Source: Nitrospirota bacterium (GTDB lineage Bacteria; Nitrospirota; Thermodesulfovibrionia; Thermodesulfovibrionales; SM23-35). From it: DNA of 64,000 nt. Where the stretch lies: assembly GCA_040753955.1 (NCBI GenBank), contig JBFMDQ010000003.1, positions 17,312-81,311 on the forward strand. Direction: 5' to 3'. This document shows, piece by piece, positions 3,842-47,030 of this stretch (positions are counted from its first letter, which is position 1; each line of letters opens with the position of its first letter). The notes beneath the pieces were generated by a model. That model was not told where the DNA came from. It ran no database searches and saw only the letters and a list, made by a program, of their open reading frames with translations. A program made the translations under genes and the position numbers.

Positions 3842-4510
3842 ATGCCTATTGAAACAGTTCTTCTTGTCGTTGAATCAATATTGCTTCTTGCTACCATTAT
3901 ACTCCTTCTTTATAGTTTGAAAGAAGGCAGGGGGAGGAAAGCCCTCCTACTGGAAGTAGGAAGGGCTATAAAGATCCTCACACGACAGGAGTACTTTCTT
4001 GTAGTCACTGATTCCATGATGGATGCAAAGGTTGAAGTTATAGGGTCTATCACAGGCAGAGTTCCATTAAGTGACGATAAGAAAAGGACCAGAGATGTTA
4101 TAAATAATATTGAGAGATTAACAAGGAATGAGGTACGGGTTAAATACCTCCTGCCAAAATTCCCTGATAGACTGCATATAGGCTACTTGTATACGAAGGC
4201 CGGCGCTGAGATCCGCTACAGCGACTGCCCTATTGTACATGATATCCGCTATATGGTTGTAGATGATAGATTGGTTGTGATTGGTATTCCCGAGATTACA
4301 GGTGAACAGGAAGCGACCAGAAAAGGTTATAGAATACCATCTGAGGGGCTCGCAACTATGCTCAAAGAGTATTTCAATAGGTGTTGGGAAAAAAGCATTA
4401 GTTATGAGGAATATGTTAAAGAGGTAATGAAACAGACAGGCGCTACGCCAAAGCTACTTGCACGAGAATTTCAAATAGATGAGAAAGAAATGGAAAGGCT
4501 TGCTGGATAA
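3842..4510 (+). CDS. Hypothetical N-terminally membrane-anchored protein
   Basis: The 222-aa ORF has one N-terminal TM helix. I recognise no family; VHDIRYMVVDDRLVVIG gives only a weak PLD/TrmB-like resemblance. Confidence 0.5.
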   Translation: MPIETVLLVVESILLLATIILLLYSLKEGRGRKALLLEVGRAIKILTRQEYFLVVTDSMMDAKVEVIGSITGRVPLSDDKKRTRDVINNIERLTRNEVRVKYLLPKFPDRLHIGYLYTKAGAEIRYSDCPIVHDIRYMVVDDRLVVIGIPEITGEQEATRKGYRIPSEGLATMLKEYFNRCWEKSISYEEYVKEVMKQTGATPKLLAREFQIDEKEMERLAG

Positions 4511-9178: not shown

Positions 9179-9410
9179 AAAATAGATATCTTTTTCTTTT
9201 TTTACTTTTTTCAAAACTTTAACTTTAACATTATTTAAAATCCACGCAACTTGAAGGCCTCGGCGTGAGCTCAGCCGAACGGTTGCGGCTACGTCCTTTG
9301 CGTAATTTAAGTTTAAATAGTCTTCCATGGTGCTGTCAATGAAGCTCATTGTCCTGTTAAAGAAATGGCACCTAAAAACTATCAAAGATGAATTATAATT
9401 AATTTTCAGG

Positions 9411-31166: not shown

Positions 31167-31260
31167 TTAAACTATATTATATCTAAATCAAGTGATTTTT
31201 TCGTCTATATCATGGCAAGTCAGTCCGCCTCTGGCGGATGCCGCTACCTGAATTCAAGTC

Positions 31261-31384
31261 AAAATTATCAATGAGTAATTATCAATTAACAATGAGCAAT
31301 TACCAAGTTAAATTTTCAATGATAATTTTGCATTGATAATTGCTAATTTTTATTTGATTATTATTTGGTCATTGGGTATTTTAG
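31261..31384. repeat. Heptamer-periodic AT-rich inverted-repeat element (AATNNNN words)
   Basis: Six in-phase heptads run AATTATC AATGAGT AATTATC AATTAAC AATGAGC AATTACC (31263-31304). They face an inverted arm ending at about 31384. The element shares an identical 17-mer and 20-mer with the hypB-hypF spacer. Confidence 0.7.
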
Positions 31385-38965: not shown

Positions 38966-39190
38966 CTCCAATGATCAATAACCAAATACCAATAACCAAA
39001 TAAATTCCAATAATCAAAAACCAATAACCAAACAACATTAACCCTTAATTAGCAACTGAACCACTTGCACGGATTAACTGTGAAATGAGTTCTCTGTGGT
39101 TCTCTCTTCAAGGTCGAATTTTTGTTTGGTTATTGGAATTTTCTTCATTGGTTATTATTTGGATCTTGGAATTTGGTGTTTGGTTATTAT
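38966..39190. repeat. Long inverted repeat of ~70-nt heptamer-periodic arms (ATAACCA/AATACCA words) filling the hypE-pdxJ spacer
   Basis: The arm at 38966-39036 faces the inverted arm at 39121-39190, with an 84-nt centre. A third copy of the arm lies at 46935-47000. Confidence 0.75.
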
Positions 39191-39195
39191 CTGCA

Positions 39196-40194: not shown

Positions 40195-41254
40195 GATATA
40201 CCCCTGAATACTTATAATATGCTGCGCAGCTTCCTTCAGTGCTAACCATACATGCACCTACAGGCCTTTCGGGAGTGCAGGTCCTTCCAAAGAGGGGGCA
40301 ATCTGTCGGTATCTTGACTCCCCTTAGGACAGAGCCACAGATGCAGGATTTTGGTTCCTTAGAATCTGGAATATCAATATGGAATAACTTTTCGGCATCC
40401 CAGCGTCCGAACTTATCCCTCAATCTCAGTCCGCTCCGGGGAATCATCCCTATTCCCCTCCAGTTCGCATTGCATGGCTCAAAGTATTCATTCATGAGAG
40501 ACGTAGCCTTTTGATTGCCTTCCTCTCTTACAACCCTCTTATATTGAATCTCGACATCTGCCCTGCCAGATGAAATCTGTTCAAGGAGCATCATAATAGC
40601 CTGAAGTATGTCCTCTGCATCAAAACCTGTTATGACCGAGGGCACTCTATAATCAGATGCTATAAATTCATAGGGTCTACTCCCTATAATTGTACTCACA
40701 TGTCCGGGGAGAATAAAACCTTCTACCCTGACATCATCAGAATCAAGGAGGGCCTTCATGGCTGGAGGAATTGTCTTATGCGCGGAGTATATATAAAAAT
40801 TATCAACCCCTATCCTTTCTGCCTCAAAGAGGGTTCCAGCAACAGAGGGCGATGTTGTTTCAAAACCTGTTGCAAAGAATACAATATTCCTCTCTTTATT
40901 TTCTGATGCAAGTTTTAATGCATCCATTGAGGAATAGACAACCCTTATATCAGCACCCTCTGCCTGTGCATGATAAAGAGATTGCTTACTTCCAGGCACC
41001 CTCATCATATCTCCGAAGGTAGCGAGGATAAAGTCATTCATCTTCGAAATAGCAATAGCAGTATCCACATCTTTTATCGGGGTAACACACACAGGGCAGC
41101 CTGGGCCACTCAGGAAGATAATGCCTTCAGGGAGAATCTCCCTTATGCCATGTCTGAATATTGCTACAGTATGCGTCCCGCATACCTCCATGAGCCTTAC
41201 CGGTCTGCCGATTGAATCCATTAAATCCCTTATCCTTTTAATTATGTTTTTCAT
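40187..41254 (-). CDS. hypD: Hydrogenase maturation Fe-S protein HypD
   Basis: The 355-aa ORF has the motifs CGTHT, GPGCPVCV and FETT, plus a C-terminal Cys cluster. Confidence 0.95.
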   Translation of the reverse strand: MKNIIKRIRDLMDSIGRPVRLMEVCGTHTVAIFRHGIREILPEGIIFLSGPGCPVCVTPIKDVDTAIAISKMNDFILATFGDMMRVPGSKQSLYHAQAEGADIRVVYSSMDALKLASENKERNIVFFATGFETTSPSVAGTLFEAERIGVDNFYIYSAHKTIPPAMKALLDSDDVRVEGFILPGHVSTIIGSRPYEFIASDYRVPSVITGFDAEDILQAIMMLLEQISSGRADVEIQYKRVVREEGNQKATSLMNEYFEPCNANWRGIGMIPRSGLRLRDKFGRWDAEKLFHIDIPDSKEPKSCICGSVLRGVKIPTDCPLFGRTCTPERPVGACMVSTEGSCAAYYKYSGVYRG

Positions 41255-41279
41255 AACTTTTAACTTTTAATTTTTGACT

Positions 41280-43778
41280 TCATCTTCCTGCCTTTATCCT
41301 TTCCCTGATTATATATGCCTGGCCGAGGGATATCCCGGCATCATTACATGCAACCTTTTCGTTGACATAGACTTCCATTCCTATGGATTTAAGCCTTGCG
41401 ATGGTCCTTTCGAGGAGATAAATGTTCTGAAATACCCCCCCGCTCAGAACAACTTCTTTTATCATATAAAGGGAAGAGAGCTTCTGCGCAATTCTAAAAA
41501 TAGCAGTGGCTACGGTGTTATGGAAAAGAGATGCAATAACACCTTCATCCTCTCCTTTTATTGAATCCTCTATAATCCTCAGAAAAGTCTGGGAGAAATC
41601 AATCTCTATGGCCTCTCTGAATTTTATATCTACAGGATAGTCATCAACTACATCAGGTCTCGTTATGGCTTCAAGTGCAATAGCTGCCTCTCCTTCAAAG
41701 GTATTTTTGTCACATATCCCGAGTATGGCTGAGACCACATCGAAGAGTCTCCCGGCTCCTGATGAAAGGGGCGAAAATTGTTTTTTATCGATAATCCTCG
41801 ATATGTTTTCCGTCGTCTCATGACCATACTTATCAAGAAAGCCTATGGACTCAAGATAATCCATCGCCTTATCTTGAGCCATGTTCCAAATATAGCTCAC
41901 AGCTGTCCTCCACGGTTCCTTAATTGCCACTTCACCCCCTGGAAGGGGAATATATCTGAAATGACCTACCCTTTCGAACCCCTCTATATTGGCAATTAAA
42001 ATTTCTCCACCCCAGAGATTTCCATCAGTGCCATAACCGGTTCCATCAAAGGAGAAACCTATAACCCTCCTCTTTATCCCCTTTTCAGCCATCACAGAAG
42101 CAATATGGGCATAGTGGTGCTGTATACCTATCTTTTCAATATCTTCCTGCCGCAATGCCCATTGTGTTGATAGATACCCGGGATGGAGGTCATAGGCAAG
42201 GGCCACAGGCTCTACCCTGTAAACATCTTTAAGGTTTTCTAAGCTCTCCTCAAAAAACCTCAATGTCTCGTAGTTTTCCATATCACCTATATGCTGACTC
42301 GGTATCGCAAAACCTCCCTTTGTGAGGGTGAAGGTGTTCTTAATATCAGCTCCACATCCGAGAACCTCAGGGCCCTCCTCGTGAAAGGGAATGGGGTCAG
42401 GGACATATCCGCGAGAACGTCTTATAAAAAAAGTCGGGAGTCGGGAGTCGGGAGTCAAGGATCCTAATTTTTGATTTTTAATTTTTAATTCTTGACTGAT
42501 GACTCTTACTACTGAATCATCAACCCGCATAAAAATATCTCTATTATGAATAAGAAAGGCATCAGCAATGTCTGAAAGCGTAGAGAAAGCCTCATTATTG
42601 TCTATGACGATAGGCTCTTCCGAGAGGTTGCCACTCGTCATGATAAGGGCATCGAAGTTAGTCGTTAGTCGATAGTCGATAGTCGATAGTCCTGAAGCTG
42701 TAGCCGCAGGCTTCAGCCTGCGAAATTTTTCATTTAAGGGATAAAAAAATAATAGATAATGCAACGGGGTATACGGAAGCATGAAGCCGAGGCAGGGGTT
42801 ATTCGGTGCAATTGCATCGGGAAGAGAGTTTTGCCTCTTTTTAAGTAGCACAATCGGTCTTTTGTTAGAAATTAAAAGCTCCTCCTCTTCTTTAGATACG
42901 TCGCAGAATTTTTTAATCGTTCCAACATCAGGCGCCATCAGGGCAAAGGGTTTGTTACTCTTTCTCTTCCTTAATCTCAACGTCTTTACTGCCTCATCGT
43001 TAGTTGCATCGCAGCCTAAATGAAACCCTCCAAGCCCCTTAATAGCAACAACTTTTCCTTCTTTCATGAGTTTTATTGTCGCCTCTATAGGATTTCCTTT
43101 TTCATAGACTTTTAGCTCTTCACCTAATAATCCCCTCATTCCCTCTTTATCCCTCTTAGTCCCCCCTTGGTAAGGGGGGAAATAGGGGGGTGAGGGGGGA
43201 TTACTTTCATTCTTTACTATTAATTCAACATGTGGACCGCATGCTGCACATGCATTCGGCTGGGCATGGAACCTCCTGTCTTCTGGATTATGGTATTCTT
43301 CCTCGCATTTAGGGCACATCTGAAAAACAGACATGGTAGTGCTCGGTCTATCATAAGGAACAGATTTTGTTATTGTATATCTTGGACCGCAGTTCGTGCA
43401 GTTTATGAATGGATAGAGGTAACGTCTGTCATTCTTATCCAGCAGCTCCCTCAAGCAGTCTTCGCATAACGAGACATCTGGAGAAATGAGGGTGAAACTC
43501 CCTTCGTCCTTACTCCTGACTATCTGAAAATCCTGATAACCATGATAGGGCATGGGAATTATATCAATTTCCATTATCTGTGAAAGAGGCGGGGCCTCTC
43601 TGGTAAGCCTCTCGATAAAGGTGGAGCTATTGTTACCTTCTATCTCGATAGTAACACCCCTGGATGAGTTCATCACGAGGCCCTTGAGATTCAAAGTTTT
43701 GGCAAGGCTATAAACAAAGGGCCTGAAGCCAACTCCCTGGACAATTCCCCTGACTAATATCTTCACCCTGGGTTTCAT
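41280..43778 (-). CDS. hypF: Carbamoyltransferase HypF carrying three in-frame repeat-derived insertions
   Basis: The 832-aa ORF has an acylphosphatase domain, two CxxC-x18-CxxC zinc fingers, a YrdC-like domain (AIKGLGGFHL) and a Kae1-like domain. Extra segments lie at 43116-43211, 42651-42743 and 42426-42500. Confidence 0.9.
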   Translation of the reverse strand: MKPRVKILVRGIVQGVGFRPFVYSLAKTLNLKGLVMNSSRGVTIEIEGNNSSTFIERLTREAPPLSQIMEIDIIPMPYHGYQDFQIVRSKDEGSFTLISPDVSLCEDCLRELLDKNDRRYLYPFINCTNCGPRYTITKSVPYDRPSTTMSVFQMCPKCEEEYHNPEDRRFHAQPNACAACGPHVELIVKNESNPPSPPYFPPYQGGTKRDKEGMRGLLGEELKVYEKGNPIEATIKLMKEGKVVAIKGLGGFHLGCDATNDEAVKTLRLRKRKSNKPFALMAPDVGTIKKFCDVSKEEEELLISNKRPIVLLKKRQNSLPDAIAPNNPCLGFMLPYTPLHYLLFFYPLNEKFRRLKPAATASGLSTIDYRLTTNFDALIMTSGNLSEEPIVIDNNEAFSTLSDIADAFLIHNRDIFMRVDDSVVRVISQELKIKNQKLGSLTPDSRLPTFFIRRSRGYVPDPIPFHEEGPEVLGCGADIKNTFTLTKGGFAIPSQHIGDMENYETLRFFEESLENLKDVYRVEPVALAYDLHPGYLSTQWALRQEDIEKIGIQHHYAHIASVMAEKGIKRRVIGFSFDGTGYGTDGNLWGGEILIANIEGFERVGHFRYIPLPGGEVAIKEPWRTAVSYIWNMAQDKAMDYLESIGFLDKYGHETTENISRIIDKKQFSPLSSGAGRLFDVVSAILGICDKNTFEGEAAIALEAITRPDVVDDYPVDIKFREAIEIDFSQTFLRIIEDSIKGEDEGVIASLFHNTVATAIFRIAQKLSSLYMIKEVVLSGGVFQNIYLLERTIARLKSIGMEVYVNEKVACNDAGISLGQAYIIRERIKAGR

Positions 43779-43828
43779 TAACCATTAATCAGTTTTGCGA
43801 GATCCCATGCTCAAAGGTTTAATTGCAA

Positions 43829-44045
43829 GTTAAAATTATCAATTAACAATTATTAATTTTACTGTTTTTCACAATACGGTTAAGGTTACGATGCCGGTAT
43901 CGTTATTCGGTTACGTCTTTCGGCCTCGAACTCAATAGTATAGAAAAACGAATGACATTGGCCGTTGGACGGCACGGGCTTCTTAACCTTAAACCTCTTT
44001 ACCCTATAATACGGTTAATTTTACATTGATAATTGCTAATTTTCA
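43829..44045. repeat. AATTATC-type hairpin element interrupted by a 124-bp GC-richer insert flanked by an 11-bp direct repeat
   Basis: The 17-mer AATTATCAATTAACAAT (43834-43850) and 20-mer CATTGATAATTGCTAATTTT (44024-44043) are identical to 31277-31293 and 31331-31350. The direct repeat AATACGGTTAA lies at 43873-43883 and 44008-44018. Confidence 0.7.
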
Positions 44046-45852: not shown

Positions 45853-46944
45853 ATGGGTGACGAACTTTATATAAAGCGTGCCCTTAGGCTTGCAGCAAAG
45901 GCACGCTGTATGACAAGCCCGAACCCCATGGTTGGGGCTATAATTGTCAAGAATGGGAGAACAATTTCTGAGGATTTTCATAGAAGGCCTGGGACTCCCC
46001 ATGCTGAGGCTCTCGCTATAGAAAAGGCCGGAGAAAATGCCAGGGGTTCCACCCTTTATATAAATCTCGAGCCATGCTGCCATACAGAGAAAAGAACCCC
46101 TCCCTGCACAGAGGCTATCATTAGTGCGGGTATAAAAGAAGTGGTTATTGCTATGACAGACCCAAATCCAAAGGTCTCGGGCAGAGGAATCTCAGAGCTT
46201 CAGAAGGCTGGTATAAAAGTCAGATCAGGTATTCTCGAGAACAAAGCAGAGAGACTTAATGAGGCATATATAAAGTACATGACTACAGGAAAACCCTTTG
46301 TGATACTAAAGATTGCCATGACCCTCGATGGGAAGATTGCTACCCCTGAAGGGCAGTCTAAATGGATAACATCCGAAAAGGCAAGAAAGATGGTTCACCG
46401 TCTGAGAGGCAGCGTTGACGCAATCATAACAGCTATAGGAACAGTTAAAGCAGATGACCCTGAGCTTACGGTAAGGATAAAAGATGGTAAGAATCCCCGA
46501 AGGATCGTTATTGACCCTGACCTTGAAATATCTTTGAATGCAAAGGTTCTTAAGGTACCACCCCCGACAATTATAATAGCGAAAAAGTCAGCAGTCGAAG
46601 AAAAGAAAAAAACATTGTTCAATAAGGGTGTTCAAATCATCGAGTATAAGGGAGAAAAACTAAATCTCCACTGGCTCATGAGAAGGCTTGGGGGAAGAGA
46701 AATCACATCGGTTCTGATAGAGGCAGGCTCCTCGATGAATGCCCATGCCCTCGAAGAAGGAATTGTCGACAAGGTGATATTTTTCATTGCACCGAAGATC
46801 ATCGGAGGGAGAGAGTCATTCCCTGCTGTAGGTGGGAAGTCCTTCAGGAGGCTTGAAGAGGCATACCGTTTAAAGGATGTGAAGGTAAGAAGGGTAGGGG
46901 AAGATATCTTGATTGAAGGATATATAGATAAGAATAACCAATAA
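45853..46944 (+). CDS. ribD: Bifunctional riboflavin biosynthesis protein RibD (deaminase/reductase)
   Basis: The 363-aa ORF has the CDA motifs HAE and PCxH..(x)..PC, plus a C-terminal RibD reductase domain. The last codons and the stop lie in repeat DNA. Confidence 0.95.
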   Translation: MGDELYIKRALRLAAKARCMTSPNPMVGAIIVKNGRTISEDFHRRPGTPHAEALAIEKAGENARGSTLYINLEPCCHTEKRTPPCTEAIISAGIKEVVIAMTDPNPKVSGRGISELQKAGIKVRSGILENKAERLNEAYIKYMTTGKPFVILKIAMTLDGKIATPEGQSKWITSEKARKMVHRLRGSVDAIITAIGTVKADDPELTVRIKDGKNPRRIVIDPDLEISLNAKVLKVPPPTIIIAKKSAVEEKKKTLFNKGVQIIEYKGEKLNLHWLMRRLGGREITSVLIEAGSSMNAHALEEGIVDKVIFFIAPKIIGGRESFPAVGGKSFRRLEEAYRLKDVKVRRVGEDILIEGYIDKNNQ

Positions 46945-47030
46945 CCAAGCACCAAATTCCAAATAAATTACAATGACCAAATTCCAATAACCAAACAAAA
47001 AATCTCTGTAGCCGCAGGCTTCAATCTGCG
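46935..47030. repeat. Composite repeat: one ATAACCA-type arm followed by the 24-nt motif TGTAGCCGCAGGCTTCAATCTGCG
   Basis: The arm resembles 38966-39036. The 24-mer at 47007-47030 matches 42699-42722 inside hypF at 22 of 24 positions. Confidence 0.7.

Follow-up and report, generated by a model that had tools for sequence, protein, structure and literature searches.

REP-associated tyrosine transposases (RAYTs), named after the repetitive extragenic palindromes (REPs), are HUH/Y1 transposases. To our knowledge, RAYTs are generally single-copy, and the only one with a demonstrated activity, in vitro, is the enzyme of Escherichia coli. Two further kinds of small palindrome resemble the element considered here. 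The Rickettsia palindromic elements (RPE), reportedly described by Ogata and colleagues in 2000, are said to lie in frame within genes, to measure about 100-150 bp in the case of RPE-1, and to have no known dedicated transposase. The small dispersed repeats (SDR) of Nostoc, reportedly described by Elhai and colleagues in 2008, are said to be hairpins of 21-27 nt that often lie within tandem heptamers, with a few copies in protein-coding genes, with compensatory changes that maintain the hairpin and with no transposase identified. The present work concerns a 24-nt palindromic motif located in frame within hypF, the gene for carbamoyltransferase HypF, in a 64,000-nt stretch of contig JBFMDQ010000003.1 from a Nitrospirota bacterium (assembly GCA_040753955.1); this whole stretch is referred to as the window. 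The motif is most likely a RAYT-associated, GTAG-tagged REP, one copy of which became fixed in frame in a linker of HypF, beside a tandem array of 7-nt units.

GTAG-tagged REPs and RAYTs have been the subject of several studies (Nunvar, 2010; Bertels and Rainey, 2011; Ton-Hoang, 2012; Di Nocera et al., 2013). The text of the most recent survey records tagged REPs from 8 phyla and describes 24 families of the GTAG-tagged kind, in which heads-out dimers predominate, as well as RAYT genes flanked by REPs, designated 'REPtrons'; copies are intragenic in several species, and some families are present in evolutionarily distant organisms (Di Nocera et al., 2013, PMC3733652). Heptamer tandem repeats are abundant and mostly intergenic in scattered lineages, including Beggiatoaceae, Cyanobacteria, and Bacteroidetes (MacGregor, 2015, PMC4679880).

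Results

A composite in-frame insert in hypF

The host gene is an intact open reading frame (ORF) on the minus strand encoding a HypF protein of 832 residues, which contains the sequence ...LPYTPLHYLLFFYPLNEKFRRLKPAATASGLSTIDYRLTTNFDALIMTSGNLSEEP... and all five Pfam domains of the enzyme (Acylphosphatase, zf-HYPF, Sua5_yciO_yrdC, HypF_C, and HypF_C_2). The protein is 100% identical to one from a Nitrospirota metagenome-assembled genome (MAG) at NCBI. When the protein was aligned by phmmer to solved structures of HypF (3VTH, 4G9I, and 3TSP), its residues 345-377 fell between aligned blocks, and their counterpart in 3VTH is a 6-residue linker (chain residues 319-324). At this position, designated site B, hypF contains 26 extra codons in frame (LNEKFRRLKPAATASGLSTIDYRLTT, residues 348-373), between ...TPLHYLLFFYP and NFDALIMTSGN.... 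Site B thus exceeds the linker of 3VTH by 27 residues and that of the shortest orthologues by about 22. An AlphaFold2 model based on a 22-sequence alignment was rejected for placing the insert, its mean predicted local distance difference test score being 42, in favour of the alignment to PDB chains. The features of the insert and its host are as follows.

41280-43778, minus strand: host gene hypF, identified by its Pfam domains, by 100% identity to a Nitrospirota MAG protein, and by synteny with loci L002 and L131.
42660-42737, minus strand: whole 26-codon insert, between the YrdC-like block and the next conserved block, delimited by phmmer against PDB entry 3VTH.
42660-42694, plus strand: tandem 7-nt array of five units (AGTCGTT, three AGTCGAT, and AGTCCTG), encoding ...GLSTIDYRLTT on the hypF strand.
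42699-42722, plus strand, antisense to hypF: REP copy 1, TGTAGCCGCAGGCTTCAGCCTGCG, intragenic, assigned from its single-stranded fold, its copies in at least 120 loci, and its presence at the flanks of RAYT genes.

Read on the plus strand, the five units of the array are followed by AAGC, by the 24-mer, and by 15 A+T-rich bases. Tandem Repeats Finder reported a period of 7 with 4.7 copies and 96% matches at 42659-42691. An earlier note made from the letters of this DNA had placed about 30 extra codons here, close to the 26 counted between YYP and NFD; its reading of GTCGTTA GTCGATA GTCGATA GTCGATA from 42661 is exact on the plus strand, and the 24-mer with its hairpin lies where the note had put it. 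The 24-mer comprises a GTAG head (42700-42703), two stem arms (42705-42711 and 42716-42722), and a TTCA loop (42712-42715). As single-stranded DNA, it forms an unpaired (T)GTAGC followed by a 7-bp stem, CGCAGGC/GCCTGCG, closed by the loop. The predicted energy of this fold is -8.5 kcal/mol (z-score of -3.8), and none of 200 shuffled sequences folded equally well. On the hypF strand, the codons CGC AGG CTG AAG CCT GCG GCT ACA specify RRLKPAAT.

The 24-mer belongs to a family of GTAG-tagged REPs

A scan with GTAGCCGCAGGCTTCANNCTGCG of one genome per GTDB species yielded at least 136 exact copies in at least 120 loci from many phyla. The motif, known to the earlier note from two sites of the window, is therefore far from restricted to them. 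The record titles of these loci name about 17 phylum-level groups: Planctomycetota (Gemmataceae), Ignavibacteria/Bacteroidota, Chloroflexota, Verrucomicrobiota, Desulfobacterota, Nitrospirota, Acidobacteriota, Pseudomonadota, Armatimonadota, Zixibacteria, Aerophobetes, Omnitrophota, Cloacimonadota, Calditrichota, Hydrogenedentes, Clostridia, and others. All of the listed loci come from MAGs, a few of which may be mis-binned, and many copies lie on long contigs, from 100 kb up to several Mb. Among the matches listed, the contexts are varied and, as judged by eye, mostly outside long genes; several genomes contribute many loci. Among the listed copies, conservation does not extend past the 23-mer, except at position -1, which is G or T in 88%, and no target motif was visible around the 136 listed copies. 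Stem variants with compensatory changes were found (GTAGCCGCAACCTTTAGGTTGCG, GTAGCCGCACCCTTCAGGGTGCG, and GTAGCCGCAAACTTTAGTTTGCG), with arms AGGC/GCCT, AACC/GGTT, ACCC/GGGT, AAAC/GTTT, and GGGC/GCCC, all of which retain the GTAGCCGC head.

Of 130 listed copies scored for partners, 62 belong to heads-out inverted pairs (4-100 nt apart), 51 are single, 8 are tails-out, and 9 are tandem. The commonest arrangement, two inverted REPs 4-100 nt apart, is that of REPINs, in which the two make up a larger hairpin (Bertels and Rainey, 2011, PMC3116915); unlike REPINs, both copies of the window are single, and the intragenic one has no partner. The family shares with the GTAG REPs, as presented in the text of PMC3733652, the unpaired GTAG, a stem of 6-13 bp, a loop of 2-4 nt, heads-out dimers as the main arrangement, compensatory stem changes, RAYT flanks, and occasional copies that add residues to ORFs. 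It differs from REP families as they are usually described, namely as specific to a species or genus, in that one exact 23-mer is associated with about 17 phylum-level names and with RAYTs only 37-59% identical to one another. The running text of that survey mentions neither Nitrospirota nor the 24-mer, and a literature search for the motif sequence and its peptides retrieved no paper. No Rfam model matched over the motif, either in the window at gathering thresholds or in five motif-rich loci at E ≤ 1.

Two other possibilities were considered and rejected. A CRISPR array, with direct repeats at regular intervals and unique spacers, does not account for copies that are single or in inverted pairs; among the matches listed, L045 is the only locus with a pair of direct copies, at a distance of 44 nt. 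Phages as a possible vector were set aside, only 8 of 2.9 million viral contigs having the motif.

Other GTAG-headed hairpin families occur alongside the motif in the loci collected (L003-L122 and L140-L219), notably types of the form GTAGGGGC-stem-loop-stem-GCCC and GTAGCACAGGCTTTCCAGCCTGTG. The latter forms mixed doublets with the motif in Desulfobaccales.

RAYT genes are flanked by the same REP

The RayT protein of E. coli (NC_000913) was compared by phmmer with every ORF of at least 70 residues in the 120 listed loci and in the window. Only two matches were obtained, in L033 and L024, both directly beside the motif. The RAYT gene of L033, a Desulfobacca MAG, has a copy 12 nt past its stop codon and an inverted copy 10 nt ahead of its start codon, and that of L024 (Kapaibacterium) has copies at both ends. 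The L033 protein scored 82.1 bits on the NCBIfam model NF047646, REP_Tyr_transpos (cut-off of 80), and 39.8 on Pfam Y1_Tnp (cut-off of 23); NF047646 was likewise the best match of the L024 protein, below the cut-off. The family built on these proteins retains the HUH motif and the region of the catalytic tyrosine (Y-x-L-D-N-P-V) and comprises 723 protein clusters at E ≤ 1e-10, many of which are named RayT by JGI. Among three members inspected on long contigs, the RAYT of L126 lies between two exact inverted copies of the motif and that of L127 between variants with a TTTA loop, and that of L125 has no copies at its flanks. The link surfaced only through the targeted phmmer search: clustering of all ORFs of the 120 listed loci for a recurrent neighbour returned only ubiquitous families (ABC ATPases and response regulators).

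A profile of the RAYT family was then used to scan metagenomes. It identified 80 loci, in 71 of which the gene could be delimited. A GTAG hairpin was present within 330 nt of an end of the RAYT gene in 70 of the 71 loci, and on both sides in 58. The pattern GTAGCCGCAGGCTT[CT]AGCCTGCG, which covers the motif and its TTTA-loop variant, was found on at least one side in 50 of the 71 and on both sides in 32. The usual layout is heads-out, with the REPs 10-45 nt from the start and stop codons. The RAYTs of these loci are 37-59% identical to each other, and the REP is nonetheless the same.

Site B in HypF orthologues

Site B was classified from the peptide in 117 HypF orthologues (66-100% identity); the counts given here were made by eye, except for that of the REP. 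A few orthologues are nearly empty at this site, such as P0011 (YYP-NLIA-NFDAL), and P0093 is also free of an insert. About half contain only peptides, for example NSELRTPNSELRT or VTSLVPRPSSLVS, that repeat every 7 residues (21 nt). In about one third, the site is occupied by a different palindrome coding for proline and glycine (NPPSPPFSKGGxGG). The REP peptide is present in 13 of the 117, as RRLKPAAT, in decayed forms (HRLKPAAA, RRLKPVAE, and RGLKPAAV), or in a version into which an 18-nt hairpin is inserted (P0009 and P0061). Wherever the REP is present, it lies N-terminal to what remains of the array. The closest syntenic relative, L002 (90% nucleotide identity), has the other palindrome at site B and lacks the REP. 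In L131, about five ACTCCGA units stand where the window has ACTATCG units, and both arrays end in ACTAAY-TTYGATGCC; the two arrays are therefore homologous, the unit having been homogenised to a different sequence.

Thus, the segment matches no conserved residues of HypF: the solved structures are gapped there, insert-free orthologues exist, and the nearest relative has another insert. The view of the earlier note that this is an insertion rather than ancestral coding sequence survives both this alignment and the search for the 24-mer. The note had treated the heptamers and the palindrome as one insert. Both parts are indeed inserted, but they do not form a single unit. The insert is a composite of two parts, a 7-nt minisatellite long established in a linker that is permissive, and a separate mobile REP that landed at its edge; the array appears to be the older resident because, in about half of the orthologues, nothing but 21-nt-periodic sequence is present at this position.

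Like RPE, the REP of hypF is a selfish palindrome that lies in frame in a conserved gene and adds a surface peptide without destroying the protein. Unlike RPE-1, its conserved unit is 23-24 nt long, GTAG-tagged, and RAYT-associated, and the flanks are not conserved between copies. The arrays differ from the repeats described by MacGregor (2015), among which the TAACTGA unit prevails and detailed mapping concerned intergenic sets; in the present case, units vary by site and by orthologue, and the arrays are in frame within a conserved enzyme.

In L129 (a contig of the Logan assembly of SRR21677123), the loop of the REP is split in frame by an 18-nt hairpin (CGCAGGCTGA-TCCCGAATGCTTTCGGGA-CTGCGGCTACA), and P0061 is alike at the peptide level. 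No further REP with a hairpin in its loop was seen among the loci examined.

Two other sites of hypF contain repeats, and both are also gaps in the alignment to the solved structures. Site A (42428-42492, minus strand, residues about 430-452) consists of two abutting in-frame arrays, AGTCGGG repeated 3.6 times and TAATTTT repeated 3.7 times, which encode SQELKIKNQKLGSLTPDSRLPT. Orthologues have two arrays with other units at this site (GTCATCA/ACTTTCA in L002, ...ACTCTCA in L129); L001, L131, and the PDB structures have none. Site C (about 43125-43200, minus strand, residues about 193-218) encodes NPPSPPYFPPYQGGTKRDKEGMRGLLG and contains a C6...G6 palindrome, CCCCCCTTACCAAGGGGGG, from a different family of small palindromes. 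Elements of this kind (NPPSPPFSKGGxGG) are those that fill site B in about one third of the orthologues, L002 included.

History and conservation of the REP in hypF

DNA sequences were available for seven orthologues bearing the REP (the window, L001, L129, and L220-L223). In a neighbour-joining tree based on conserved columns, the REP-bearing HypF proteins occupy at least six places, and their sisters often carry other inserts. The orientation and the codon phase of the REP are identical in all seven genes, though four of the six frames are open. In four of the seven, the junctions are also the same, with AATGA(A/G)AA(A/T)TTT on one side of the REP and (G/T)CT on the other. We favour a single ancient insertion, lost or replaced many times thereafter, because the orientation and phase are uniform and four orthologues share the junctions.

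Conservation was measured over the 15 pairs formed by the six orthologues in which the REP is not interrupted; L129 was excluded. Over the whole gene, nucleotide identity is 70-79%, falling to 43-60% at third codon positions. Within the 30 nt flanking the REP, 14-24 positions are identical. The REP itself is identical at 22-24 of its 24 positions and at 7-8 of its 8 third codon positions. The sole loop change, TTCA to TTTA in L220 and L221, produces the variant that is commonest beside RAYT genes. Taken alone, the run of 27 identical nucleotides shared by the window and L001 was rejected as proof that the sequence is constrained, as the same pair of genes has three other identical runs of 26-30 nt; the valid comparison is that of synonymous sites across the six orthologues. 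We tentatively favour a scenario in which intragenic copies would be repeatedly reset from the REP population of the genome, by gene conversion or re-insertion, over selection at the nucleic-acid level, because peptides have decayed in other orthologues and because the motif is equally invariant in unrelated contexts.

REPs in a second gene and beside 7-nt arrays

A second intragenic case was accepted. In the Nitrospirota MAG CAVVUN010000001 (L094), carB contains an in-frame insert of 32 residues, including VAAGFSLR encoded by a REP at 4045-4067. The REP is in sense orientation, opposite to that of the hypF copy, and the residues flanking the insert are contiguous in E. coli CarB. In high-GC loci, many other long 'ORFs' that cross the motif were dismissed as spurious.

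Of the 136 listed REP copies, 7 have a period-7 array no more than 45 nt away, versus 104 of 12000 random positions (odds ratio of 6.2, p = 2.5e-4), and no other period from 5 to 11 was enriched near these copies. An association of REPs with 7-nt arrays is not described in the text of PMC3733652. In element size, hairpin, and heptamer context, the motif is similar to the SDR of cyanobacteria, by description only; unlike SDR, it occurs in a different phylum and is linked to RAYTs.

The second copy and other repeats of the window

A second copy of the motif is present in the spacer downstream from ribD, as the earlier note had reported (22 of 24 positions, same orientation). When the window was shuffled 100 times with its dinucleotides preserved, no match at up to three mismatches arose.

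47007-47030, plus strand: REP copy 2, intergenic, 63 nt past the ribD stop codon, in sense orientation, with 2 mismatches, degenerate.
46933-46998, plus strand: AT-rich quasi-heptamer dispersed repeat, abutting REP copy 2 on its head side, with periods of 7 and 14 according to Tandem Repeats Finder.

The replacement of GC by AT in the 3' arm of copy 2 breaks the stem, and the fold is weaker (-4.4 kcal/mol, z-score of -1.6). The heptamer-periodic DNA said to precede this copy does have a period of 7, but only over 2.3 copies at 46933-46948; the period is then 14, so the sequence is quasi-heptameric. The scan of the window for GTAG hairpins gave 2, compared with 2.6 expected from shuffled sequence, showing no sign of a high copy number. 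It detected no second GTAG hairpin close to 42699 or 47007, and both copies are therefore singletons.

Several other repeats were noted in the window. The AT-rich quasi-heptamer repeat (66 nt, CCAATAA-like) that abuts REP copy 2 is the third of its kind, two inverted copies (38970-39035 and 39116-39193) being located around a core of about 80 nt at 38970-39193. The segment at 46933-46998 is 82% identical to 38970-39035 over 66 nt and 96% complementary to 39116-39141 and 39166-39188. A second AT-rich dispersed family (…AAAATTATCAAT… / TAATTTTRCATTGATAATTGCTAATTTT) is present at 31255-31350, 43826-43860, and 44016-44043, beside tRNA genes and in the hypB-hypF spacer. At a loose threshold, three of the five short-period arrays of the window have a period of 7, two of these being inside hypF, and the other two have a period of 4. 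The sequence GTAGCCGCAAC...GTTGCG at 9240-9292, on the minus strand, has half-stems separated by about 30 nt and may represent a related REP variant in which one copy has been disrupted.

In the window, hypF is preceded by hypB and followed by hypD, and ribD, recognized by its RibD_C and deaminase domains, is close by on the opposite strand. Synteny with L002 and L131 places hypA and hypE in the same cluster, hypA-hypB-hypF-hypD-hypE. The full spacer between the hypF stop and the hypD start (25 nt, 41254-41280) is itself a 7-nt array, TAACTTT repeated 3.9 times.

Discussion

The following sequence of events is proposed for the insert. The REP family flanks RAYT genes and would presumably be mobilised by RAYTs. 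One copy would have become fixed in frame in hypF, bordering on the upstream side a 7-nt minisatellite that was already there. The interdomain linker that holds both appears to tolerate extra residues, and the minisatellite would fill this loop in most relatives. The gene would thereby stay intact, with the REP translated as the predicted peptide RRLKPAAT. A RAYT of this genome or of an ancestor may have moved the REP by cleaving and joining single strands at the hairpin, in the manner of the E. coli TnpA-REP and of IS200/IS605. The 7-nt arrays might attract REPs, perhaps via exposed slipped or single-stranded DNA, and the insert is possibly near-neutral selectively for HypF.

A number of observations weigh against this proposal. 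The phmmer search with E. coli RayT revealed no RAYT gene in the 64-kb window, and mobilisation in this genome can therefore only be presumed. The window holds just two copies of the motif, both single and one of them degenerate, and the RAYT of L125 has no flanking REPs. Only about 5% of the listed REP copies adjoin 7-nt arrays, and the preference for such arrays is weakly established, the control being random positions rather than random intergenic ones. Finally, the REP of hypF is conserved beyond what is expected of a neutral passenger; the simple picture of a tolerated selfish insertion leaves this unaccounted for.

Two alternatives concern the REP of hypF itself. The REP could have entered site B several times, or have been repeatedly overwritten, the transposase or the 7-nt array making the site a target. 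The scatter of REP-bearing proteins over at least six places of the tree, with sisters carrying other inserts (P0001/P0002 and P0003/P0014), is what such a history would produce, as are REPs that are intact while their flanks differ strongly in L222 and L223, and the presence in L220 and L221 of the loop variant prevalent at RAYT genes. We nonetheless regard repeated entry as rather unlikely, since it leaves unaccounted for the single orientation and phase shared by the seven orthologues when four of six frames are open, as well as the junctions common to four of them, as one event predicts, and since the listed copies have no target motif. The conservation could also mean that selection keeps the hypF REP for a function of its own in DNA or RNA, as an mRNA hairpin that pauses translation from one HypF domain to the next, a stabiliser of the transcript, or a protein-binding site. 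The contrast between the REP, third positions included, and the rest of the gene and flanks is in line with this idea, as is the location of the REP exactly at a domain boundary. However, most orthologues have no REP, several have decayed at the peptide level, an unrelated palindrome has taken its place in the nearest relative, and one lineage tolerates an 18-nt hairpin in the loop. Equal invariance in unrelated contexts and phyla further indicates a property of the REP population rather than of hypF, making retention for such a function improbable.

Mobilisation by a RAYT has an alternative of its own, in which the motif is dispersed by recombination, by a different transposase, or by whatever process generates the 7-nt arrays, and RAYT genes insert at REPs. 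It draws on the lack of a RAYT in the window, where transposition by such an enzyme is presumptive, on the generally single-copy state of RAYTs, and on an activity known in vitro for the E. coli enzyme. The tight, symmetric heads-out layout at both gene ends in most of the 71 loci, which persists across RAYTs of low mutual identity, renders it quite unlikely. As for ancestral HypF coding sequence resembling an intergenic site by chance, the segment is in frame and free of stop codons, and recurs in 13 of the 117 orthologues. This explanation is already refuted, with a negligible chance of being correct: the segment is missing from the solved structures and most orthologues, no shuffled window reproduced the match, and the 23-mer occurs in unrelated places in all those loci.

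Insertion of a RAYT-associated REP beside an older array is thus the reading retained here. Intragenic GTAG REPs, in-frame palindromic inserts, and heptamer arrays are already known, and in kind the hypF case is ordinary. What goes beyond earlier descriptions is the Nitrospirota host, the exactness of one REP across phyla and diverged RAYTs, and the conservation of an intragenic copy at synonymous sites. A broader and more tentative interpretation, which we hold to be possible but not probable, is that the 23-nt REP and its RAYT constitute an ancient REPtron spanning many phyla, whose hairpin has remained essentially invariant while the transposase diverged to about 40% identity, whose individual copies, intragenic ones included, are kept at the family consensus or returned to it time and again at synonymous sites, and which, together with the second palindrome and the 7-nt minisatellites, repeatedly remodels the same surface loops of HypF in Thermodesulfovibrionales-like Nitrospirota.

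For the annotation of these genomes, a repeat that would otherwise be a mysterious 'insertion' in a gene gains a name and a likely mobilising enzyme, and the peptides RRLKPAAT, QAEACGY, VAAGFSL, and SRRLQPA provide markers of the REP in predicted proteins. The occurrence of intragenic GTAG REPs is extended to Nitrospirota. Small repeats of at least three kinds appear to land recurrently in the loops of HypF, and these loops offer a natural system for studying the diversification of protein linkers. If true, the ancient-REPtron interpretation would point to an undescribed, active mechanism that homogenises or re-targets REPs.

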